From positions 7,127-71,126 of the forward strand of contig QKEV01000011.1 of assembly GCA_003252295.1 (NCBI GenBank): a stretch of 64,000 bases of DNA. The letters are read 5' to 3'. Under the pieces are notes generated by a model. That model saw only the letters and a program-made list of their open reading frames with translations. It searched no databases and had not been told where the DNA came from. This stretch comes from a bacterium (GTDB taxonomy: Bacteria; Patescibacteriota; Minisyncoccia; Phycocordibacterales; UBA12088). Of the stretch, positions 4,717-30,982 are shown piece by piece. How positions within the stretch are numbered: the stretch's first letter is position 1; every line of letters starts with the position of its first letter. A program made the position numbers and the translations under genes.

Positions 4717-6618
4717 TTACTCGGTTTCTGCGTCTCGTACCTTCTCCTCGCCATCAGTATCATCTTTTTTATCATCTTTATTTTCCTTATCTTCTGTTGT
4801 TTCAGAAGAAGAAGCTTCATGTTTACTCACCGCTTCACCAATTTTCTGCATTGCAGTAGAAAGCTCATCTGAAGCTTTTCTGATATCATCTCTCACTGTC
4901 CCCTCCACTGCTTTTTTCAAAGCAGTAATCTTTTCTTCAACTTCAGTCTTTATTGAAGCGTCCACCTTGTCACCATAATCCTTGAGTGACTTCTCTGCGG
5001 TGTAGATAAGCTGCTCTGCTACATTCTTTGCTTCAATGAGTTCACGTTTTGTTTGGTCATCTTTCTCGTGTGACTCAGCATCATTCTTCATTTTATCTAT
5101 CTCTTCGTCTGAGAGACCGGAACTTGCCTCGATCTTGATTGATTGTTCCTTACCTGTCGCCTTGTCCTTTGCTGTAACATTCAAAATACCATTTGCATCC
5201 ACATCAAAGCTCACCTCGATCTGTGGCATGCCGCGAGGTGCAGGGGGAATGCTATCAAGAATGAAGCGTCCAAGTGACTTGTTGTCAGTCGCCATCGCAC
5301 GTTCTCCTTGTGTGATATGTATTTCCACCTGTGTCTGGTTATCAGCAGCAGTAGAGAATGTCTGACTACGTTGTGTTGGTATGGTTGTGTTTCGTTCAAT
5401 GAGTTTAGTAGAGACACCACCCATGGTCTCAATACCAAGCGAGAGTGGTATAACATCAAGCAAGAGAATATCTTTTACATCACCCTGTAGAATACCTGCC
5501 TGAATAGCAGCACCACTTGCAACCACTTCATCAGGATTGATACTCTTGTTTGGCTCCTTACCAAAGAGATCCTTCACTGCCTTCACAATAGCTGGCATAC
5601 GAGTCTGTCCTCCCACAAGGATAATCTCATCAATGTCACCTATACCAAATGGAGACGCTTCTACAGCACGCTTTGTAATAGTGATCGAACGTTCAATGTA
5701 CTCACTTGCGAGCTCTTCGAGTTTTGCACGAGTCAACGTAAGGAGAAGATGTTTTGGACCATCACTGTCTGAGGTAATGAACGGTATGTTTATCTCAGTG
5801 TCTGTTGTCGTTGAAAGCTCCATCTTTGCCTTCTCAGCTGCCTCATCGAGACGCTGCAGTGCAAGCGGGTCCTTCGTCACATCAATACCAGAATCTTTCT
5901 TGAACTCATCTGCTATCCAGCGCACAATCTTCTGGTCAATGTCACGACCTCCCATATGTGCATCACCATCGGTACTCTTCACCTCGATTACATCATCACC
6001 AACCTCAAGTACTGACACATCAAATGTACCACCTCCGAAGTCGAAGACTACTATTTGCTCATCTTTCTTTTTGTTGAAACCGTACGCAAGTGCTGCTGCA
6101 GTTGGCTCGTTGATAATACGCTTCACCTCAAGACCTGCGATCTTACCAGCATCCTTTGTTGCCTGACGTTGTGAGTCGTTGAAGTATGCAGGGACCGTAA
6201 TCACTGCCTCGGTAATCTCCTCACCAAGCTTTCGCTCTGCGTCTGCCTTGAGCTTCTGGAGAATCATTGCGCTAATCTCTTCCGGTCGGTACTGCTTATC
6301 ACCCATAGCAATGAGTACACCACCGGTGTCACCCTTCTCAACCTTGTATGGGACTATCTCCTTATCCTTCTGCACCGCGTCCTCTTCAAAGTTGTGACCA
6401 ATAAAACGCTTGATACCATAAATAGTGTTCTGTGGGTTCGTAACTGCTTGTCGTTTTGCAACAACACCTACAGCACGTTCCTTGTTCTTACTGATTGAAA
6501 CTACTGATGGAGTAGTACGATTACCCTCCTCATTTTCTATGATCTGTGGTTCACCACCTTCAACGTACGCCATTGCTGAATTTGTGGTTCCAAGATCTAT
6601 TCCTAGTATTTTTGACAT
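4717..6618 (-). CDS. dnaK: Molecular chaperone DnaK (Hsp70)
   Basis: [30 protein letters not shown], acidic C-terminal tail. 633 aa. Confidence 0.97.
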
Positions 6619-6673
6619 GATGGTTTAACTTAGATGTATAAATGTTCCGAAAGTTACTTTCGGGGGCTGAATG

Positions 6674-7258
6674 TTATGTTTTATCCTGTAGCTGCGCAAC
6701 AACAACTTTTGCTGGTCGCACAAGCTCACCATTAATAGTGTATCCCTGCTGAAAAACTTGCGCTACCGTGTGATCTTCTTTTTTCTTTTCTGTCGGTACG
6801 ATACTCATACACTCGTGTACATTTGGATCAAATGCCTCACCGGGAGCACCAAAGCGTTCTAAACCCTCACTCTTCAGTGCCTGATGAAACTGGCTCGCGA
6901 TTCGTTCTACTCCTTGTCGCCAGTTCTCATCGACGTCGTGCCAACTTTTTTCCTGCATTGCGGCTTCAAACGTATCGAGGGCTGGGAGCAGTTTTTCAAT
7001 AATAGACCCTTTGATACGTGATTCATTTCGCTCCCTATCTTCTGCAACTGTCTTACGAAAGTTCACGAGATCTGCCTTTGATCGTTGCCAACCCGCAAGG
7101 TTCTCATCTCGCTCATGCTGAGCCTCTCGTAACTCAGCTCTGAGGGCTTTTAGTTTATCCTTAAGGGCAGCATTAGTGACCTCTTCTGTTTCAAGTTCTA
7201 TCTCGTCACCAGTCTCAAAATCTATTGAAATCTCCTCATTTTCCGCGCCTTTTTTCAT
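6674..7258 (-). CDS. grpE: Nucleotide exchange factor GrpE
   Basis: Coiled-coil N-terminus and GrpE C-terminal beta domain. Sits directly upstream of dnaK in operon order grpE-dnaK-dnaJ. Confidence 0.9.
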   Translation of the reverse strand: MKKGAENEEISIDFETGDEIELETEEVTNAALKDKLKALRAELREAQHERDENLAGWQRSKADLVNFRKTVAEDRERNESRIKGSIIEKLLPALDTFEAAMQEKSWHDVDENWRQGVERIASQFHQALKSEGLERFGAPGEAFDPNVHECMSIVPTEKKKEDHTVAQVFQQGYTINGELVRPAKVVVAQLQDKT

Positions 7259-11533: not shown

Positions 11534-12031
11534 CTAAAGTCTACGGCTAAGAGCGGAAACAACACCCCAGATGTATACCCCATCACCATCACACACCTCC
11601 TGCTTTACCGCATCTCCCACACCACACACCAAAAACTGTCTACCTTCATGCTCAGTGTAGCGACAAAGAGAAAATGCACCTTCACGTACCGCTAAGACGA
11701 GGTTACCGAGAACAGGAGTGAGTGCTCTATCGATAGTGAGTATGTCACCCTGCATAACACCAAGAAACTTGTTCTCCTCTATCTTTACTGGACCATCAGG
11801 ATTACCCACTTCAACAAAGTAGGTTGCTGCAGGGTGCTGTACGAACAACTTATCTAGAGAGAGAGCGTTCTTGTAACCATCAGACATTGCATAGTCCGCA
11901 CTCTCCTCAAGTGCATAGCGACATGCAGCACACACCACCTCACCACCATTGCCATGCACATGCTTGTCCTTACTAAGTGACGTACGTACAAAAGATACTG
12001 GTTTCATAGTTTTATGTTCTTGTTTTTCCAT
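11534..12031 (-). CDS. umuD: UmuD-like S24-fold protein; catalytic dyad apparently degenerate
   Basis: QHPAATYFVEV aligns with UmuD QHPSATYFVKA. Directly upstream of umuC. By-eye alignment places GNPDG where GDSM is expected and REGAFSLCRY where GEFTVKKL is expected. Confidence 0.7.
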   Translation of the reverse strand: MEKQEHKTMKPVSFVRTSLSKDKHVHGNGGEVVCAACRYALEESADYAMSDGYKNALSLDKLFVQHPAATYFVEVGNPDGPVKIEENKFLGVMQGDILTIDRALTPVLGNLVLAVREGAFSLCRYTEHEGRQFLVCGVGDAVKQEVCDGDGVYIWGVVSALSRRL

Positions 12032-12650: not shown

Positions 12651-12914
12651 CTATGCAAAGTTCCAGTTAAAGAGTCGTGTAGAGACACGTTGGTTGAGAC
12701 TCTTACGGACAGGACTTTTTCCGAAACGAGAGCGTCGGAAGATCTGCAAGGTTGTGTCTTCCTGTACACCCAAGCGCTGGAGTGCGCTGAGGAGGTCTCG
12801 GTGACGACGTGCTTCTTTTTCATATGAACAACCCCGTACGATCTTGGTATCTATCACAGTATTAAGCTTTTTTAGCTCCCTGTTAAGTTCTTTGAGAAGT
12901 GTTGTTTTGTTCAT
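12651..12914 (-). CDS. Hypothetical basic protein co-transcribed with lexA (87 aa if started at Met68)
   Basis: The ORF ends 8 nt before the lexA ATG. The ORF track's longest form (12651..13115) would contain the LexA-box-like palindrome, so the Met68 start just downstream of the box is preferred. Confidence 0.35.
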   Translation of the reverse strand: MNKTTLLKELNRELKKLNTVIDTKIVRGCSYEKEARRHRDLLSALQRLGVQEDTTLQIFRRSRFGKSPVRKSLNQRVSTRLFNWNFA

Positions 12915-12948
12915 AAGCCCTTTAGTTAATGAATATGTGTACAGTATA

Positions 12949-12964
12949 AGTGAACGTTCGTTCA
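12949..12964 (-). promoter_or_regulatory. Candidate LexA operator (Cheo-box-like GAAC-N4-GTTC palindrome)
   Basis: GTGAACGTTCGTTCAC is a perfect 6-bp inverted repeat with a 4-nt spacer, about 35 nt upstream of the Met68 start of the ORF that precedes lexA. Confidence 0.4.
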
Positions 12965-13041
12965 CCGTCAACTTTTTTCCCCGCTTTACCCTCTTTACGG
13001 TACGCATTTTTCTCACTGTCAAACTTATCGACATACACCCC

Positions 13042-13069
13042 ATGGTATGAATTGACAACAGGTATTCCT
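13042..13069 (+). promoter_or_regulatory. Consensus sigma70-type promoter upstream of the small ORF / radical SAM gene
   Basis: TTGACA (13042..13047), 16 nt, TACTAT (13064..13069). An AAAGGGGGA Shine-Dalgarno sequence follows at 13123..13131. Confidence 0.55.
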
Positions 13070-13136
13070 TTGCTACTATCAAAATAGACCGTAGGTGGTA
13101 ACTATCACACTGCATTAATCAACAAAGGGGGATACA

Positions 13137-13250
13137 AATGGAAAAGAAACAAAGTACCGAAGAGAAGGCAGAAAAGGTTCTCAAACAACTGCAGAAGATG
13201 AGAGGAGATGTCAAAGACATTCCGCCAATGAAACGTCTTCCCATGGTTAA
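13137..13250 (+). CDS. Small ORF (37 aa as written) immediately upstream of the radical SAM/SPASM enzyme; candidate precursor peptide, frame uncertain
   Basis: ATG at 13137 sits 6 nt after a strong SD and reads MGKETKYRREGRKGSQTTAEDERRCQRHSANETSSHG. The +1 frame reads ...EKKQSTEEKAEKVLKQLQKMRGDVKDIPPMKRLPMVNGEGC, stops at 13264..13266, and is more protein-like. Confidence 0.3.
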   Translation, partial: NGKETKYRREGRKGSQTTAEDERRCQRHSANETSSHG

Positions 13251-13274
13251 TGGAGAAGGATGCTAAGAGTTTTT

Positions 13275-13317
13275 GAGCCCTCGTATTTGTACCGGAGGGC
13301 TCTAACATTTTTTCTGG
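13275..13317 (+). terminator. Hairpin plus T-run between the small ORF and the radical SAM gene (attenuator or partial terminator)
   Basis: GAGCCCTC gtatttgtaccg GAGGGCTC is an 8-bp GC-rich stem with inner GTA/TAC pairing, followed by TAACATTTTTTC. Confidence 0.5.
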
Positions 13318-13326
13318 AGATCAGAG

Positions 13327-14337
13327 ATGGAATATGAAAAATTTTCTGCGCTGCAGATTGAATACTCTTCAAGATGCAATATGCAGGATGTATGCAAGCA
13401 TTGCTATGGAGCAACAGGTATTCATGAAGCAGAAAAGACGATACCAGATAAAGTGATGGAGGTCATACTTGCTGAAGCAAAATACATTGCGTCTTCTATC
13501 ACCATTACCGGAGGTGAACCAGCAACATTTCCTCACATGACGAGAAGGATTTGCAATGAGTCAGGGCTTCCGGTTTTTGTTATGACCAACGGAATGAAGC
13601 TCATTGAAGGTATTACGCCAGCTAGCGTACTTTTTTCCTTGGATGCAAATGATGCACGTCCAGGTATCAACCCAGACACCATACTCAAAAATGTTCTTGG
13701 TTACAATTGCAACCTAGCATGCAATACAGTACTCACGAGTGATCTGGACCTGTTGTCGTACTTCGAAAAAATGAAAGCGCTCAACAAGAAATTGCTTTCA
13801 CGAGGACAGCATTTGAGAGAGTGGAAACTTGGTTTTGTTATAGACAGAGGGCGAGCAACGAAACATAGAAACCTGTTCCCCGATATCGATGTCGTATTTA
13901 AACAACTACGGCAGCTACTCATCACCTATTTCGAAGACCCACCTTTTCACTTGGCAATTCGCGGCTTCCTGTACACAAAGTTTTTAACCGATGCATACTT
14001 GCAGTCAATAAAAAACTTTAAGCTTCAAGAAAAGCGAAACCCATGCCTCGACTGCTACGGCAGAGGTGAGATACTCACCGTAAACACGGAAGGACGTGTA
14101 CAGATGTGCACCGTACATCGTACTGTTTCCGAACCGATCACAGACAGTCTCATTGATGCCGTACTAAAGCTTCTACAACGGAATGAGTTCACTGCCCTCA
14201 CGTACAGAGATTGGTCTGAGTGTCACAGTTGTCGGTACTGGAACATTTGTGGCGGTGGTTGCCCATCACTTGCAGAAAACTACGGAGGTTCATGGACAGG
14301 AAAGGACACCTTTCAATGTACCATTATGGGAAAATAG
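13327..14337 (+). CDS. Radical SAM protein with C-terminal SPASM domain (peptide-maturase-like)
   Basis: N-terminal Cys triad CNMQDVCKHC (CX5CX2C, not the canonical CX3CX2C), the GGEP SAM-binding motif, and the C-terminal CLDC...C plus CHSCRYWNICGGGC (CX2CX5CX3C SPASM signature). Confidence 0.8.
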   Translation: MEYEKFSALQIEYSSRCNMQDVCKHCYGATGIHEAEKTIPDKVMEVILAEAKYIASSITITGGEPATFPHMTRRICNESGLPVFVMTNGMKLIEGITPASVLFSLDANDARPGINPDTILKNVLGYNCNLACNTVLTSDLDLLSYFEKMKALNKKLLSRGQHLREWKLGFVIDRGRATKHRNLFPDIDVVFKQLRQLLITYFEDPPFHLAIRGFLYTKFLTDAYLQSIKNFKLQEKRNPCLDCYGRGEILTVNTEGRVQMCTVHRTVSEPITDSLIDAVLKLLQRNEFTALTYRDWSECHSCRYWNICGGGCPSLAENYGGSWTGKDTFQCTIMGK

Positions 14338-14460
14338 GAAGAATATATACTTCCTATACTACCTAAAAAAATTCAAGACAGTTTTCAAACCTTACTGTCA
14401 TAGCACGCTGCCGCTCTCCACATTGTGGACAGCGGCAGTAACTATTACTATTATCTACAC

Positions 14461-15150
14461 ATGTACACAAAAGATTTTGCAAACAACTACGACACGCTTG
14501 GCTGGGGAAACTTTTCAGAAAAGGTTTATATGGATATTCGTGCACATGTAAAAAACAAAAAAAATATTTTAGATATTGCTTGTGGGACAGGTGTACTCGC
14601 AAACAAACTGGCAGCTGATGGACATAATGTGTGGGGATTTGACCTATCTGACGACATGATACGGGTCGCAAAAAGAAAAACGTCAACAGCAGTATTTAGT
14701 GTCAACAATATGAATACGTTCCAGATGAAAAAAGAATTTGATGCTATCACCTGTGTATATGACTCGATAAATCACATAACAAACTGGAAACATTTTTTTA
14801 AGAATGTTGCAAAACATTTAACGCAAGACGGTGTGTTTATTTTTGACTACAACACGATTGCCGGACTCAAAAAATGGGGTAACCCGTTTATACAAGAAAC
14901 AAAAGACACCATATGCAGCTTTTCTGGTTCATACAACAACAAAAAGCACTCAGCAAAACTCAACCTCAAATGCTACAAAAAACAACACAGTAATGAACTT
15001 ACGACACTTGTTGAAGATTCATTTACAAGTTACACCTACACCAAAAGAGAGGTTATGTGGTGGCTAAAAAATGCTGGATTAACAACAAAGAAACTATACC
15101 CGAATAAACATAACCCTTATCGAGAAACCCTCATTTGTACAAAAAAGTAG
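14461..15150 (+). CDS. Class I SAM-dependent methyltransferase
   Basis: ILDIACGTGVLANKL (motif I) and DAITCVYDSINHI (motif II). The ORF track starts at 14425; the ATG at 14461 is the more likely start. Confidence 0.8.
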   Translation: MYTKDFANNYDTLGWGNFSEKVYMDIRAHVKNKKNILDIACGTGVLANKLAADGHNVWGFDLSDDMIRVAKRKTSTAVFSVNNMNTFQMKKEFDAITCVYDSINHITNWKHFFKNVAKHLTQDGVFIFDYNTIAGLKKWGNPFIQETKDTICSFSGSYNNKKHSAKLNLKCYKKQHSNELTTLVEDSFTSYTYTKREVMWWLKNAGLTTKKLYPNKHNPYRETLICTKK

Positions 15151-15209
15151 TGCTACTACACACAGGATCTACGTGTGAGTGTTTGATAAAAATATGCTAC
15201 AGTTTACGC

Positions 15210-15785
15210 ATGAAAACTTTTTTACTTAAATCAATACTACTTCTATCACTTATTAGTAATGCCCTCCTGCTCTACCTCGTAGTGGAGCAGAAGAATGTGC
15301 AGAATGCAGTTGAACATGAAGAACTTGCACAGCAAGCAGAGCAACCTGTCATGCGTTTACCTGAGAGTGGCAACACGTACCCTCTCATACGTATTATCGA
15401 CGGCGATACTATTGTAGTAGGTTTTGATAAGCAAACACAGTACGTACGTCTCATTGGTATTGACTCACCTGAACCAAATGACCCAGGAGGACCTGAGTGT
15501 TACGCTGATGAAGCAACAAAACATCTTCAAGCATTAGCACAAACAGGATTAGTGGTGCTTCATTTTGATGAGTCACAGGGTACACGCGATACGTATGGAC
15601 GTCTTCTTGCCTACATTGAACTTCCTGATGGAACCGACCTTGGAAAGAAAATGATTGAAGATGGTTATGCACGTGAGTACACCTACAACACAGCATATAC
15701 TCGACAAGCAGACTACCAAGCAGCTGAAAATGATGCTATGGAAAATGAGCGTGGTTTATGGGCTCCAGGTGCCTGTGATGAATAG
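15210..15785 (+). CDS. nuc: Secreted thermonuclease (SNase-like)
   Basis: Signal/TM segment MKTFLLKSILLLSLISNALLL, then IDGDTIVV...YVRLIGIDSPE...YGRLLAYIE, characteristic of staphylococcal nuclease homologues. Confidence 0.8.
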   Translation: MKTFLLKSILLLSLISNALLLYLVVEQKNVQNAVEHEELAQQAEQPVMRLPESGNTYPLIRIIDGDTIVVGFDKQTQYVRLIGIDSPEPNDPGGPECYADEATKHLQALAQTGLVVLHFDESQGTRDTYGRLLAYIELPDGTDLGKKMIEDGYAREYTYNTAYTRQADYQAAENDAMENERGLWAPGACDE

Positions 15786-24645: not shown

Positions 24646-25914
24646 CTACTCCCTCATTCTTCTCGCACGCCTCTTCTTGTGGAATGACAAAGCGAATCGA
24701 TGTGCCTCGCTATTTGCGAGCAGGATATCGTTCTGGTACCTATTTTTAACCTTGAGAGGTCCCTGAAGGTTTCGTGGTCGATGATGCTTATCCTTTGTAA
24801 CTGCAACAAGCGGTATGACCACACCTGCTTTTTTACAAACACGCTCAGCAACATTCATCTGCGCCTTACCACCATCAAGTACCATGAGTTTTGGATACTG
24901 CCACTCAGGGTGAGCTAAACGTCGTTCAAGCAGTTCCTCAAGTGCACCCGTGTCACTTCCTGAAGCAGCATCTCGAATAGTAAATGTTCTGTACTCACTC
25001 TTTTCCATCACACCACCATCAACAACCACCATAACACCCACCGTATCTGTACCACCGAGGTGTGCCACGTCATACGCTTCAACACGATACCCAGCACCTG
25101 AACGTAACGGTACATCTCGTTTTAGAAGTGACACATCCTCTATGTGTTGCAACGCAAAGAGTTGACGCTTTACCGTTGCTGCTTCTTCGAAACGTTCCTC
25201 TCGCGCAAGTTTATGCATGTCACGTTCAAGTGTGCGGAGTAGTGTCTTGAGCTTCCCATCAAAGATGGTTTTTAGGTAGCGCACCGTACGTGCGTACTCT
25301 TTCTGTGTTACATCTCCTCTTGGAAACACGCCAATTGATTCATTAAAGAGTAGTTTTCTATCATACTTTTCACGAAGCATCTGTACCGGTTCTTTTGTAT
25401 CGTAGTATGGAAAAATTTTTCGTAGCAACTTAAGTGCCTCCTTGAACTGACCAGCATGTGGAAACGGTCCATACACTAGTGGATCTTTATACCTCTTTCG
25501 CTCCCCCTGATACAAACGTTTAAGCTGTGCCAAAGTGATGGTTAGATCTTTACCACGTACCGTCAATAACCGTGGGTATACCTCATGTATTGTTATAACA
25601 AGATGGTTAAAACTTTTATCATCCTTATCTCGCACGTTGTACGGCGGCTTAAACTCCTTTATGAGCTTCGCTTCAAGAATGAGTGCTTCGAGCACAGAAT
25701 CAGTTGTACGAAAATCAACTCTCTCTGCCCGCTCTACCATACGAACGATTTGTACACCACGTGAAGCAAGTACATTTTTACCAAAGTAGCTTCGCACACG
25801 ACTCTTAAGCGACGTTGCTTTTCCAACGTAAAGCAGTTCACTCTTTTTTCCGAGAAAGAGGTACACTCCAGAGCAATCCGGAAGTGCCTGTATACTTGCG
25901 TGAGTAATCTCCAT
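24646..25914 (-). CDS. uvrC: Excinuclease ABC subunit C, short form (no C-terminal helix-hairpin-helix)
   Basis: GIY-YIG (GVYLFLG...LLYVGKATSLKSRVRSYF), a UvrB-interacting region and an RNase H-like endonuclease segment. 422 aa. Confidence 0.8.
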   Translation of the reverse strand: MEITHASIQALPDCSGVYLFLGKKSELLYVGKATSLKSRVRSYFGKNVLASRGVQIVRMVERAERVDFRTTDSVLEALILEAKLIKEFKPPYNVRDKDDKSFNHLVITIHEVYPRLLTVRGKDLTITLAQLKRLYQGERKRYKDPLVYGPFPHAGQFKEALKLLRKIFPYYDTKEPVQMLREKYDRKLLFNESIGVFPRGDVTQKEYARTVRYLKTIFDGKLKTLLRTLERDMHKLAREERFEEAATVKRQLFALQHIEDVSLLKRDVPLRSGAGYRVEAYDVAHLGGTDTVGVMVVVDGGVMEKSEYRTFTIRDAASGSDTGALEELLERRLAHPEWQYPKLMVLDGGKAQMNVAERVCKKAGVVIPLVAVTKDKHHRPRNLQGPLKVKNRYQNDILLANSEAHRFALSFHKKRRARRMRE

Positions 25915-25920
25915 ATCGTC

Positions 25921-28506
25921 TTACTTGAGTACCTTTTTAAGATACTTTCCAGTGTGCGTTTTTGTCTGAGCAACCTCCTCTGGAGTCCCTTTAGCAACAA
26001 TCTTACCTCCATCAACTCCTCCTTCGGGACCAATATCAATGAGCCAGTCAGCACTCTTAATAATATCCATATTGTGCTCAATAATAACGACACTGTTACC
26101 TCTGTTAATGAGTGCATTTAATACATCTAAGAGTTTCTGCACATCATCGTAGTGCAACCCAATCGTTGGTTCATCAAGAAGGTATATGGTCTTTTGTGTG
26201 TGTGGTCTAAACAGTTCACTCGCAATCTTAACTCGTTGTGCTTCCCCACCAGAGAGCGTATTTGCTGCCTGCCCGAGCTTCAGGTACCCAAGTCCCACCT
26301 CGGTCAAAGTCTTCAACCTGTCATGCACCTGCGGAATATCCTTAAAGAACTCGTACCCCTCATCAATACTCATCTCAAGTACGTCATATATGTTTTTCTT
26401 TTTATACCGTACCTCAAGTGTCTCCTTCATAAAGCGTTTACCATTGCACACATCACACTGCACGTACACCGTAGGGAGAAAGTGCATTTCAACCGCAATT
26501 GTACCGTTTCCCTGACATGCTTCACATCGTCCACCACCCTTTGCTGTTGCCACGTTAAACGAGAACCGTCCCGCTTTCCACCCACGGAACCGTGCTTCTT
26601 CGGTCGAAGCAAACAGGTCACGAATGTAGGTCCAGGCACCCGTGTAGGTTGCCGGGTTGCTTCGTGGTGTACGTCCAATAGGACTCTGGTCCATCAAGAC
26701 CACTCTCGAGAGGTACTCCGTACCAGTGAGACTTGAGATGTTGTAGAGCTTGTTGGTTCGATACTGTCGTTCGAGTCGCGCTCGTAGGTTTTTATGTAAC
26801 AGCTCATACATGAAGGTACTCTTACCCGAACCAGAAACACCCGTGATCACCACCATCTTCTGTAGCGGTACATCTGCGTTCATACCCTTGATGTTGTTTG
26901 CGTTGCCGTTGCGCAGACGAAGCCATCCTCGCTCTTCCTCCCTTCGCACCTCAGGTATCTCTATTTCTTTTTCACCACGCAAGTACGCAAGTGTACGTGA
27001 ACCACTCATATTTCGTTTTGCCGTTAAAAGCTCTTCGAGCCATCCTTGCACGACAACCTCACCACCCTGCACACCAGCACCAGGACCGATGTCTACAATG
27101 TAGTCAGATGAAAAAATAGTATCCTCATCATGCTCAACAACAACAATCGTATTTCCGAGATCACGAAGTGCGGTGAGGGTTTTAATGAGTCGGTCATTAT
27201 CACGTTGATGCAGACCAATCGTTGGCTCATCAAGCACGTAGAGTGCACCAACGAGACCAGAGCCGAGTTGACTCGCAAGGCGTATACGCTGAGCCTCACC
27301 ACCTGAGAGCGTGTTTGCTCGTCTGTCGAGTGTCAGGTAGTCGATACCAACATTGAGCATGAACTGCAAACGTGCCTGTATCTCCCGCAATACTACTGAA
27401 GCTATTTCCTTATCCTTTTTTGAGAGCTCTAGAGAAGTAATGAAGGTATGCGCGTCCCGTATCGAGAGCGCTGTAAGGTCAACAATACTTTTTCCTACCT
27501 TTGGATCACCTCCAAGAAAAACCTGCAACGCCTCAGGGCGAAGACGTTTTCCGTTACACTCAGTACAAATATCATCATGAAAGAAACCGATCGTTCCTAG
27601 ACCGTTACAGCCACTACAGGCACCATATGGAGAGTTGAACGAAAAGAGTCGCGGCTCTACTTCAGGAAACGAGAAACCATCCTTTGGACAGATAAACTTC
27701 GAAGAGAGTACTTCAGTACTGCCATCTGGAGCTTCTATCTCTATGAGGCCATCTGACTCATCGAGAGCAAGTTCAATTGCTTCAGCAAGTCGTTCCTCAG
27801 CATCTTTTTTACCTCCCGTAAGTTCTGAAAAGAAGAGCTCATCAACGAGTACACTAATGTCATGACGTTTCTGTTTTCCAAGAGTTATCTTCTCCCGTAG
27901 GGAGTACTCTTTTTTATCAATACGTACCTTTTCATATCCCTTTCCAAGTAAGTCATAGAGCATTTGGTAATACTCTCCCTTTCGTCCAACCACAACAGGT
28001 GCCCAAAGTCGAAGTTTTCGATCATCATAGGCAACACCCATCACCTCTTTCCCTTCGCCTTTACCATGTTGCAATACAAGATCCTTCACCATCCTTTGCA
28101 TTTCCTCATTTGAGAGACGCTTGATCGGTGTACCACAAATTGGACAATAGGCACTACCTACACGAGCATAGAGAATACGAAGGTAGTCGTATATTTCAGT
28201 GATTGTAGCAACTGTTGAGCGTGGATTATTTGAACGTGATTTCTGATCAATAGATATTGCTGGCGAAAGCCCAAGTATCTCATCAACATCCGGTTTCTTC
28301 ATTTGATTCAAGAACTGTCGTGCATAAGCAGAAAGTGACTCTACGTAACGACGCTGTCCTTCAGCAAAAATAGTATCAAAGGCAAGTGACGACTTACCGG
28401 AACCAGAAAGACCGCTAATAACCACAAGAGCATTCCGTGGAATCTTCACGGAAATGTTCTTGAGATTATGTGTTCGTGCACCTTTTATGTATATATGATC
28501 TTCCAT
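25921..28506 (-). CDS. uvrA: Excinuclease ABC subunit A
   Basis: [18 protein letters not shown]...[35 protein letters not shown] is nearly identical to the E. coli UvrA N-terminus. Two ABC modules with zinc fingers. The track ORF starts at 28587; Met28 (28506) is preferred. Confidence 0.95.
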
Positions 28507-28683
28507 GTTGTATGTAAACGTACCCTCACAGGCAGTTTTGCCTGTGCTTGGAGGCACAGGTAGTACGTGTTTGATTGTAGCAAACAATTATCCACAATCA
28601 AGTTGTATACGTGTCAAATCATAAAAAATGCTTGGTACAATATACGTACGATCGAGATAAACATTATTCATAACTAATTTACT

Positions 28684-28884
28684 ATGGTTCATATTCGACA
28701 ACCGTTCTTTTCAATTATCACTGCAACTGTGTTCAGTCTCATGGGACTCATGTACGGCATTTCTGCAGGAAAAGGAGCTGGTATTGCTTTTGGTACAATA
28801 GAACTCAACATGTCAGCAAGTTGGGCACTCACCGGTGTCATGTTCCTCATGGCATACTTCGCACTTGTACACATCAAGGACTAG
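28684..28884 (+). CDS. Small membrane protein (66 aa), hypothetical
   Basis: Two hydrophobic helices and its own downstream terminator. Confidence 0.4.
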   Translation: MVHIRQPFFSIITATVFSLMGLMYGISAGKGAGIAFGTIELNMSASWALTGVMFLMAYFALVHIKD

Positions 28885-28906
28885 TTTCTAATAACAGTAC
28901 TTTCTA

Positions 28907-28932
28907 AAAGCCGACATACTGTGTCGGCTTTT
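28907..28932. terminator. Bidirectional intrinsic terminator
   Basis: GCCGACA tactg TGTCGGC with flanking A-run and T-run. Overlaps the uvrB stop. Confidence 0.6.
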
Positions 28933-30982
28933 ACTTTCGCTTCTTTTTTTTAACACCACCTTCCAGTGCACGTATCTCATCACGTAAAAGTGCTGCTGTC
29001 TCAAAATCAAGACGTGCAACTGCCTCATTCATCTGTTTTGTTTTCTCAGCAACCACTTTCTTGGGATTCTTTTTATAACGCTTCTCATCCACTGCAACGA
29101 GAGTATGGATCGCCTTCTCATGATCACTTCGTAATTGTTCTGTTATATCCTTCACCGCTTTTTGTATGGTCTTTGGTGTGATCTTATGCTTCTTGTTGTA
29201 CGCTTCCTGCACTTCTCGACGTCGATTTGTCTCACTGATGGCTGCCTGCATGGACTTTGTCATGGTGTCTGCATACAGGAGCACTCTGCCGTTCACGTTT
29301 CTGGCAGCACGTCCTATGGTCTGAATGAGTGATGTTTCTGAACGCAGGAACCCTTCCTTGTCAGCATCGAGGATACCGATGAGTGATACCTCAGGGAGAT
29401 CGAGTCCCTCACGAAGCAAGTTAACCCCAACGAGCACGTCGAACTCTCCCTTGCGAAACTGTGAAAGTATTTCAATACGATCAATCGTCTTCACATCACT
29501 ATGTATGTACTGTGACCGCACCTTCTTCTCCTTGAGGTACTCAGTGAGATCTTCTGCCATCTTTTTTGTCAGCGTGGTTACGAGTGAACGTTCTCCATGT
29601 TTCGTGTTCGCCACCACCTCCTTGATAAAGTCCTCCACCTGACCAGCATAACCCTTGCCTGAAATCACAGGACGTTCAATAATTTCCGGATCCAAGAGTC
29701 CCGTTGGACGAATGATCTGTTCTACAATCTGACCAAATTGCACACTCTTCTCTTTTTCATACCTTGCCGGAGTTGCTGATGTATAGAGTACAGGACCAAC
29801 ACGTTCCTCGAACTCATTAAATTGCAACGGCCTATTATCAAGTGCTGAAGGAAGGCGAAAACCATGTTCTACAAGCGTTTCTTTTCTTGACCTATCACCA
29901 GCGTACATACCTGCTACCTGCGGTACGGTCACATGCGACTCATCAATGATGGTAAGGAAATCAGGTGTACCATCCGCTTTATGCGGGAAATATGAAAGCA
30001 GAGTGTGAGGAGGTTCTCCTGCCTTTCTACCGTCGAAGTGACGTGAGTAATTCTCAATGCCGTTGCAGTACCCTACCTCACGAATAAGTGCGAGGTCGTG
30101 TGTCGTTCTGCGTTTTATGCGCTCATGCTCAAGTACCTTCCCTCTCGCTTCAAGTTCTTGTAATCGCTTCTGCAATTCCTGCTCGATATCATGCACCGCT
30201 CGCTTACGCTCATCCTCTGAGGTAATGAAGTGCTTTGCTGGGAACACGTACAGTGCTGCATGCTCGTTTTTAATAATCCTTGAGATAGGATCAAGTTCTG
30301 CAACGGTGACGATCATATCCTCTGAAAATGACACACGAAAGATAACCCGTTCATTCGTTGGCATGATCTCAACCATGTTCCCCTTAGCGCGAAACAGTCC
30401 CGGCATGAGGTCTGCATTTGTTCGAGAGAAGTGTATACGCACCAACTCACGTATGAGCTCTGTGCGAGTGAGTGCTCCACCCACCTCAAGCCGCAAGTGC
30501 ACCTTCTCGTACTCCTCAGGACTTCCCAAACCATAGATACATGAGACAGACGCGACGACGATGGTATCACGCCTCGTGAGGAGTGCTTGTGTGGAGGCGT
30601 GCCGCAGGCGCTCTATTTCTTCATTTACCATCGCCTCCTTCTCTATGTAGGTATCAGAAACTGGCATGTACGCCTCAGGCTGGTAGAAGTCATAGTACGA
30701 AACGAAGTAGTGTACGGCATTTTCGGGGAAAAACTCTCGATACTCAGCAGCGAGCTGTGCAGCGAGCGTCTTGTTGTGTGCAATGACCAAGGTCGGTTTC
30801 TGTACGTGCTGTATCACATTTGCCATCGTGTAGGTCTTTCCTGTTCCCGTTGCACCAAAGAGTACTTGGTGCTGCATTCCCTCATCTAACCCTTTCGTAA
30901 GTGCACGAATAGCCGCAGGTTGGTCACCTGCTGGTTCAAACGGTTTATGTAGCTTGAATGCTTGTTCGTTTCCGTACTTCAT
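28931..30982 (-). CDS. uvrB: Excinuclease ABC subunit B
   Basis: GATGTGKTYTMANVI Walker A, helicase motifs, C-terminal UVR domain. Confidence 0.95.
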   Translation of the reverse strand: MKYGNEQAFKLHKPFEPAGDQPAAIRALTKGLDEGMQHQVLFGATGTGKTYTMANVIQHVQKPTLVIAHNKTLAAQLAAEYREFFPENAVHYFVSYYDFYQPEAYMPVSDTYIEKEAMVNEEIERLRHASTQALLTRRDTIVVASVSCIYGLGSPEEYEKVHLRLEVGGALTRTELIRELVRIHFSRTNADLMPGLFRAKGNMVEIMPTNERVIFRVSFSEDMIVTVAELDPISRIIKNEHAALYVFPAKHFITSEDERKRAVHDIEQELQKRLQELEARGKVLEHERIKRRTTHDLALIREVGYCNGIENYSRHFDGRKAGEPPHTLLSYFPHKADGTPDFLTIIDESHVTVPQVAGMYAGDRSRKETLVEHGFRLPSALDNRPLQFNEFEERVGPVLYTSATPARYEKEKSVQFGQIVEQIIRPTGLLDPEIIERPVISGKGYAGQVEDFIKEVVANTKHGERSLVTTLTKKMAEDLTEYLKEKKVRSQYIHSDVKTIDRIEILSQFRKGEFDVLVGVNLLREGLDLPEVSLIGILDADKEGFLRSETSLIQTIGRAARNVNGRVLLYADTMTKSMQAAISETNRRREVQEAYNKKHKITPKTIQKAVKDITEQLRSDHEKAIHTLVAVDEKRYKKNPKKVVAEKTKQMNEAVARLDFETAALLRDEIRALEGGVKKKKRK

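Follow-up and report, generated by a model that had tools for sequence, protein, structure and literature searches.

Among the radical S-adenosylmethionine (SAM) enzymes with a SPASM domain, those that require a Cys usually make thioethers, and sactisynthases such as AlbA and SkfB carry an N-terminal RiPP recognition element (RRE; RiPP, a peptide made on the ribosome and modified after its translation) and act on precursors that usually contain several Cys residues. Patescibacteria have tiny genomes and, to our knowledge, almost no recognized secondary metabolism. In the NxxC system, the maturase NxxcB makes a radical thioether between Asn C-beta and the Cys sulfur (PMC9389541). Radical SAM enzymes bind the [4Fe-4S] cluster that cleaves SAM through three cysteines, canonically spaced CX3CX2C, and SPASM domains carry 7-8 Cys, CX2CX5CX3C among them, for two auxiliary Fe-S clusters. 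A CX5CX2C spacing of the former cysteines has been described for HcgA alone, an enzyme that does not belong to the SPASM group, takes part in the synthesis of the [Fe]-hydrogenase cofactor and was placed in a non-SPASM megacluster (PMC10100467; PMC9477430). Here, we analyzed a stretch of 64,000 nucleotides from a Patescibacteriota genome (contig QKEV01000011.1; the whole stretch is hereafter called the window, and coordinates are positions within it), in which a tiny gene, a radical SAM/SPASM enzyme gene and a methyltransferase gene follow one another on the forward strand. A preliminary description made from the letters of the window had proposed a peptide-modification system at this place, and comparison with relatives supports that view: judged from gene sequences and their neighborhoods, the tiny gene, the enzyme and, usually, the methyltransferase very probably constitute a conserved and rare RiPP cassette in ultra-small Patescibacteria. 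Full-text literature searches combining Patescibacteria or the candidate phyla radiation with radical SAM, RiPP, ranthipeptide or SPASM returned no description of this cassette family, which is apparently undescribed.

Conservation of the precursor peptide

The precursor peptide gene (13138..13266, + strand) comprises 42 codons and a TAA stop (MEKKQSTEEKAEKVLKQLQKMRGDVKDIPPMKRLPMVNGEGC) and is already annotated as a gene in public data. It matches the small open reading frame (ORF) of about 37-43 codons that had been expected behind a strong Shine-Dalgarno (SD) sequence, and the latter was located at 13124..13132 (+; AAAGGGGGA), 6 nt ahead of the ATG. Strong SD sequences of the GGAGG type also precede most of the precursor orthologues. 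Contigs of 12 members of the enzyme family were fetched for neighborhood comparison, and a homologous small ORF bearing a common motif was detected beside the enzyme in 11 of the 12, so that conservation and co-location of the small ORF, on which the preliminary description had made its proposal depend, were both observed. The 12th contig (L014) starts just 92 nt upstream of the enzyme; what it retains ahead of the enzyme is the end of a short reading frame (GNIPKAKK and a stop codon) followed by a hairpin.

The shared motif can be written as h-P-h-x-[KR]-R-h-x-x-[LM]-N-G-x(0-3)-C. With the invariant Asn taken as position 0, P(-9) and K/R(-6) are invariant, R(-5) occurs in all cores of the core family, and G(+1) is nearly invariant. 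The Cys lies at +2 to +6 from the Asn, is present in 13/13 cores of the core family and is followed by a tail of 0-11 residues; most cores carry a single Cys. Thus, the C-terminal Cys that had been singled out in the window's peptide proved to be invariant in the family. In the window, the putative recognition and core motif IPPMKRLPMVNGEGC occupies 13219..13263 (+), with P(-9), K/R(-6), R(-5), N(0), G(+1), and Cys(+4), and the same end is found in L010. The small ORFs of other members end in IPPMKRMATLNGGMCGATSKKS (L002), IPPLKRLPVLNGSCDTPTD (L016), MPVTKRLPSMNGGGCP (L005), TPVSKRIIMMNGGDCGT (L008), MPI(T/G)KRIPSMNGGSAC (L011 and L013), and LPATKRLPTLNGGCPVDDD (L017).

Several further features characterize these small ORFs. 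The motif is repeated within longer precursors, with three copies in L003 and two in L015, each copy being accompanied by a separate acidic stretch upstream and by a separate Cys. In L017, the precursor sits between the enzyme and the methyltransferase, that is, downstream of the enzyme. When the window and every fetched locus were translated in all six frames, the precursor motif was not found at any other place. Comparison of the window with L010 also reveals purifying selection on the core, whose last 16 codons show seven synonymous and no non-synonymous changes, whereas the leader shows five synonymous and 12 non-synonymous changes. Considering the tandem motifs, the gene order in L017, the absence of the motif elsewhere, and the different substitution patterns of core and leader, a chance occurrence or a purely regulatory role of the small ORF is unlikely.

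A precursor-like ORF was also observed in L018, upstream of a distant CX5CX2C relative of the enzyme (P0044). This 64-codon ORF (positions 298-492 of L018) ends in PEPAIKAMLMMNDEDE and overlaps the enzyme start codon; it keeps the P(-9), K(-6), and N(0) register without the Cys and comes from a single short contig.

The radical SAM/SPASM maturase

The maturase gene (13327..14337, +) contains 336 codons and ends at an in-frame TAG. Its product has the features that had been read from the sequence, namely a radical SAM enzyme with GGEP (residues 62-65) and a SPASM motif CX2CX5CX3C (C299-C312), and a search with the SPASM model TIGR04085, which had been suggested as a check, gave 38.8 bits against a cutoff of 27. 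Pfam Radical_SAM (PF04055) was matched by a bare margin, with 29.6 bits (cutoff 29.5). The GGE SAM-binding motif, common to all family members, and a partial TIM-barrel radical SAM fold are present, and the SPASM domain (14044..14319, +) contains eight invariant Cys residues (C240, C243, C261, C299, C302, C308, C312, and C331) that are arranged in all members as CX2C, C, CX2CX5CX3C, and C. The radical SAM cluster motif (codons C17-x5-C23-x2-C26; 13375..13404, +) is invariant in 16/16 family members and reads CX5CX2C, not CX3CX2C, which corresponds to a two-residue insertion in the loop compared with all next relatives, all of which have CX3CX2C.

The family is small and well separated. It consists of 16 clusters with 42-77% identity, each scoring above 500 bits, whereas the next profile match among 5.8 billion proteins reached 60 bits; an exhaustive hidden Markov model search of 1.84 billion representatives retrieved just nine clusters (50% identity) at E<1e-30. 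A genome scan and a metagenome scan each added one extra locus, and no relatives were detected by scanning viral contigs with the enzyme alignment or by tblastn against GenBank phages. Neither the enzyme nor the distant relatives from the exhaustive search reached any curated family, and the models of anaerobic sulfatase-maturating enzymes (anSME), pyrroloquinoline quinone (PQQ) enzymes, and mycofactocin enzymes, among which the preliminary description had considered that the protein might fall, all scored far below their cutoffs. The best weak full-length similarities were to the peptide maturases PapB, CefB, ryptide, DarE, and QhpD, and the closest solved folds were those of the peptide-modifying SPASM enzymes ChlB, SuiB, CteB, PqqE, and SkfB, together with anSME (listed figures: ChlB 20.7, anSME 20.4, SuiB 19.7, CteB 19.4, PqqE 18.2, and SkfB 18.1). 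No RRE was recognized by a PF05402 match in the enzyme, whose barrel strand starts at residue 8-9, and no small PqqD-like gene was present in the neighborhoods. PADLOC indicated nothing specific, the model of the prokaryotic viperin pVip matching with only 30 bits over the generic N-terminal 80 residues.

Outside the family, three SPASM proteins of approximately 360-400 residues (P0048-P0050) have the canonical CX3CX2C motif, share the C-terminal tail (F/W)E(K/E)(Y/K)IL/YPxLP, and reach no curated cutoff. They may represent a larger uncharacterized clade of compact maturases.

Regulatory architecture and genomic setting

The precursor gene is preceded by a sigma-70-type promoter (TTGACA, 16 nt, TG-n-TACTAT) at 13052..13079 (+). 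This TTGACA-16-TACTAT element had been correctly recognized before but placed 10 nt too low, at 13042-13069. Taken by itself, the promoter of the window is not above chance, as four promoter-like sites were found in the region against 6.5 expected. Its assignment is based on the hexamers and on conservation: the -35 and the extended -10 elements are also kept in L010 (a 77% relative), and a perfect TTGACA-16-TAnnAT lies 5' of the small ORF in 7/10 loci.

Between precursor and maturase, the GC-rich hairpin with a T-run that had been noted is present (13275..13313, +). It has an 8-bp GC-rich stem (arms 13275-13282 and 13295-13302; dG -20.9, z -2.06) and a 12-nt loop, and the T6 run (13308-13313) begins 5 nt after the stem. 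It is a candidate partial terminator or RNA-stabilizing stem. A terminator scan did not call this hairpin because the T-run is offset by 5 nt from the stem; given that offset and a z-score of just -2.06, a leaky terminator is a reasonable inference, not a demonstrated one. A stable hairpin is located after the stop of the precursor and ahead of the start of the enzyme in 9/10 loci, and also in L014, with stem sequences that are unrelated to one another; therefore, the structure rather than the sequence is kept. An Rfam search over the whole window gave no match. A second, strong hairpin (14407..14439, +; dG -26.7, z -5.0) follows the extended maturase frame and overlaps a promoter-like site ahead of the methyltransferase gene (TGGACA-17-TATTAT, 14426-14454), from which the latter may be transcribed separately.

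The setting in a reduced genome beside SOS genes, as previously described, was also borne out: the DnaK protein is 84% identical to Parcubacteria/Patescibacteria proteins, and LexA-like and UmuC-type genes adjoin the cassette. Upstream and on the opposite strand lie genes for a LexA-like S24 peptidase, a 165-residue protein (11534-12031; no match in a Pfam search), and a UmuC-type Y-family polymerase. The sole Cheo-type LexA box of the window (GAAC-N4-GTTC, 12952-12963) overlaps a minus-strand promoter-like site (TTGACG-17-TATACT, region 12943-12971) that would drive an 87-codon ORF (12651-12914) and these three genes, a set that has the look of a compact SOS operon within a Patescibacteria genome. 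The idea that the precursor is under SOS control was considered and rejected: since the box sits on the divergent lexA-operon promoter, ~90 bp upstream of the precursor -35 element, direct repression of the precursor by LexA is unsupported. UvrC-, UvrA-, and UvrB-like genes are clustered at 24646-30982, ~10 kb from the SOS operon, which, for a reduced genome, makes the window rich in DNA-repair genes.

Methyltransferase and other neighboring genes

The gene at 14461..15150 (+) encodes, as had been described, a class I SAM-dependent methyltransferase in the same orientation as the maturase, and is a probable tailoring enzyme. Orthologues with 33-67% identity, sharing N-terminal and catalytic motifs, directly follow the maturase or the precursor in 9/12 members, so its membership in the system is frequent but not universal. 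The nearest sequences were 1y8c, the amine N,N-dimethyltransferases TylM1/DesVI, and a daptide methyltransferase; the score against the daptide model NF041820 (61 bits, cutoff 175) indicates resemblance only. Because the protein most resembles amine N-methyltransferases, N-methylation is suggested. The presence of the methyltransferase did not correlate with features of the core peptide. Outside the family, the best matches of the maturase are Nanoarchaeia proteins of 591 residues (P0018 and P0021), radical SAM-SPASM enzymes whose C-terminus is fused to a class I methyltransferase; the gene pair has its parallel in this fusion, which hints, weakly but independently, at a functional link.

The following gene (15210..15785, +) encodes an SNase-domain protein with a hydrophobic N-terminus. 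A thermonuclease with a signal peptide had been counted as a cassette member; the SNase-domain gene is indeed there, but it is not conserved in the other loci, where genes for ThyA, a methionyl-tRNA synthetase, a DUF4410 protein, or phage proteins occupy the same position, and it was therefore rejected as a part of the cassette. It matches the PADLOC candidate model SNc+LTD with 114 bits over the nuclease domain, probably just because of the shared domain.

A methionyl-tRNA-synthetase-like gene was observed after the cassette in L005 (1779-3233), L008 (about 5081-6733), and L013 (2286-3998), with or without a methyltransferase gene in between. Its occurrence in three distinct lineages points to a chromosomal location that has been conserved, with the methyltransferase having been lost from some lineages. 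The three-core cassette of L003 (1-12324) and L004 is located among genes for an Erf-like recombinase, an HNH endonuclease, a DnaD-like helicase loader, and M23 endolysin-like proteins, and these surroundings are a phage-like or prophage region.

Proposed pathway

We propose that the dedicated strong promoter and SD sequence would drive synthesis of the 42-residue precursor, whose Lys-rich N-terminal part may act as leader and whose last 15 residues (IPPMKRLPMVNGEGC) may combine a recognition element, P-x2-[KR]-R-h-x2-h-N-G, with the modified site. The hairpin would allow just a fraction of the transcripts to proceed into the maturase gene, or would stabilize the short precursor mRNA. The maturase, having no RRE, would bind the motif directly, cleave SAM at the CX5CX2C cluster, and abstract a hydrogen from the peptide, probably acting at or near the Cys. 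The reaction might close one intramolecular thioether bridge, linking the invariant Cys to a carbon within the invariant Leu/Met-Asn-Gly segment. Since SPASM enzymes requiring a Cys usually form thioethers and NxxcB links Asn C-beta to Cys sulfur, such a thioether between the Cys and the Asn region is our best guess, made by analogy with NxxC and the ranthipeptide systems. Where present, the methyltransferase would then methylate the product, and export and leader cleavage would be carried out by the products of unlinked genes.

A number of observations weigh against this proposal. The enzyme encoded in the window is truncated, and may have been recently inactivated, be partly active, or be produced by read-through; in structural models, the lost tail looks structurally integral. 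The spacing between Asn and Cys varies from 2 to 5 residues, which is unfavorable to a thioether. With all eight SPASM Cys residues in place, an open coordination site like that of CteB is not obvious. As the precursor-like ORF of L018 has the P/K/N register without Cys, a Cys thioether cannot be the chemistry of the wider clade. Furthermore, the methyltransferase is absent in three lineages (L002, L005/L009, and L008), and no protease, exporter or transporter, or immunity gene is conserved beside the cassette in the fetched loci.

Alternative explanations

It is quite possible that the RiPP family is real and that the copy in the window is a decaying, non-functional remnant whose maturase was inactivated by a TGG-to-TAG change. 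The maturase frame is interrupted by a TAG at 14335-14337, where L010 has TGG and the relatives run on for ~22 residues; the 21 codons behind it (EEYILPILPKKIQDSFQTLLS; 14335..14403 with the TAG, +), followed by a stop, are still intact and match the conserved C-terminal tail of the family. This tail is kept in 14/15 relatives and in distant SPASM relatives with the canonical motif. The tail of a full-length relative was modeled as two confident helices (predicted local distance difference test score of about 90), and modeling with the tail raised the confidence of residues 215-230 from about 49 to about 84, which suggests that the helices stabilize this segment. In addition, two neighboring genes end in TAG as an ordinary stop. 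Because the change removes a conserved tail, the maturase may be impaired unless the stop is read through. On the other hand, no other lesion was seen, the precursor, promoter, SD sequence, and methyltransferase being intact; P0007 has a much shorter and different tail, implying that the tail may not be essential; the sequence is identical to that of the window in a second assembly; and low-level read-through is conceivable. The TAG could be a nonsense mutation of recent origin or, alternatively, a site of read-through.

The family might also be a RiPP system with another chemistry, a reading that we regard as possible but rather unlikely. The invariant Asn or a neighboring hydrophobic residue would then be modified (by epimerization, a C-C or C-O link, or a change in the backbone), with the Cys serving only in binding of an auxiliary cluster or in a later step, or the Cys would be oxidized in the manner of anSME. 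The variable Asn-Cys spacing is compatible with this idea, and the Cys-less relative in L018, which keeps P(-9), K(-6), and N(0), hints at a reactive center in the invariant Asn region and not at the Cys; however, the Cys is found in every core of the core family, and L018 is a single short contig. As for oxidation of the Cys, the anSME substrate motif C/S-x-P/A-x-R is absent, and the anSME model (TIGR03942) gave 18.8 bits against a cutoff of 349. It is improbable that the peptide, instead of yielding a secreted product, gives rise to a peptide-derived cofactor used inside the cell, as the precursors of mycofactocin and PQQ do. Such a role could account for the lack of linked exporter, leader protease, or immunity genes and for a modified site at or near the C-terminus; the end of MftA (I-D-G-M-C-G-V-Y) is loosely like L/M-N-G-G-x-C-G. 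It fits poorly with a very patchy distribution (hundreds of close DnaK relatives against ~16 enzyme clusters), with the phage-like location of the cassette in one lineage, with the lack of a conserved dehydrogenase or chaperone partner in the loci, and with MftC and PqqE models that score far below their cutoffs. Finally, the small ORF could be a regulatory upstream ORF, encoding an arrest or attenuation peptide that, together with the hairpin, controls a radical SAM enzyme acting on another substrate. The conserved residues do concentrate near the C-terminus of a short ORF with a hairpin behind it, and a Pro-Pro motif could slow ribosomes, but the longer ORFs of L015 and L003 contain two and three copies of the precursor motif at a great distance from the stop, the Cys is followed by tails of 0-11 residues, the small ORF of L017 lies downstream of the enzyme, and the SPASM enzymes nearest in fold act on peptides; we therefore consider this explanation very improbable.

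Implications

Returning to the proposed RiPP cassette, a more far-reaching form of it can be put forward only tentatively: the family might be a RiPP class specific to Patescibacteria and phage-like elements, in which a minimal RRE-less CX5CX2C SPASM maturase reads a motif beside the modified site and installs an uncatalogued crosslink or modification, the product being used by the episymbionts against or with their hosts. Because almost no secondary metabolism has been recognized in Patescibacteria, a conserved modified-peptide system with strong predicted expression is a candidate effector or signal in obligate host association; in one case, a phage-like element carries it. Among SPASM peptide enzymes, the maturase is one of the smallest; it has no RRE and bears a cluster motif whose only reports to date concern HcgA-type enzymes, and it would serve as a minimal model for RRE-independent substrate recognition. 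The short and tandem-core precursors make the system easy to probe by heterologous co-expression.

Comparison with known systems

The ranthipeptide systems NxxC, PapB, and CteB resemble the window family in having a short precursor beside a radical SAM/SPASM enzyme and an essential Cys. In NxxcA, an Asn located a few residues from the Cys is linked through its C-beta to the Cys sulfur (PMC9389541), and an Asn lies near the Cys in the window family, too. PapB (NF047865) gave the best full-length similarity among NCBIfam models, yet with 34 bits against a cutoff of 340, and CteB was among the best matches in both sequence and fold, the sequence match (E 2e-4) covering the N-terminal core only. 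Unlike the ranthipeptides, the window family has no RRE, CX5CX2C in place of CX3CX2C, one Cys per core instead of several, another motif, and a Patescibacteria host. In ranthipeptides, the Cys sulfur is bonded to an acceptor carbon other than the alpha carbon, and in sactipeptides to an alpha carbon. The sactipeptide systems differ from the window family in the same way with respect to the RRE and the number of Cys residues, the enzyme lacking the former and most cores having a single one of the latter.

Other SPASM systems are more remote. Besides the low score of the anSME model, there is no sulfatase gene and no C/S-x-P/A-x-R motif in the window family, which has a dedicated small precursor instead. 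The triceptide synthase ChlB shares 18% identity with the enzyme, and the core in the window has no aromatic residue for a cyclophane; YhhB (NF041707, triceptide/3-CyFE) scored 20.5 bits against a cutoff of 445. Mycofactocin biosynthesis (MftA/MftB/MftC) is similar in that the C-terminal modification site is on a short peptide encoded beside a radical SAM/SPASM enzyme. However, MftC (TIGR03962) gave 20 bits against a cutoff of 265, no MftB chaperone was found, and at their ends the precursors have Cys or a variable tail instead of Val-Tyr. HcgA (HmdB) has the same CX5CX2C spacing of the SAM-cluster cysteines (PMC10100467; PMC9477430), whereas in the window's enzyme this spacing is a two-residue insertion in an otherwise ordinary SPASM-type core. 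The cassette is therefore of a known general kind, a radical SAM/SPASM RiPP system, and by the tested criteria is outside the sactipeptide, ranthipeptide, triceptide, mycofactocin, and anSME families, from which it departs in six respects: the precursor motif, the absence of an RRE, the cluster motif, the tandem-core precursors, the phylum, and the phage-like context of one member.

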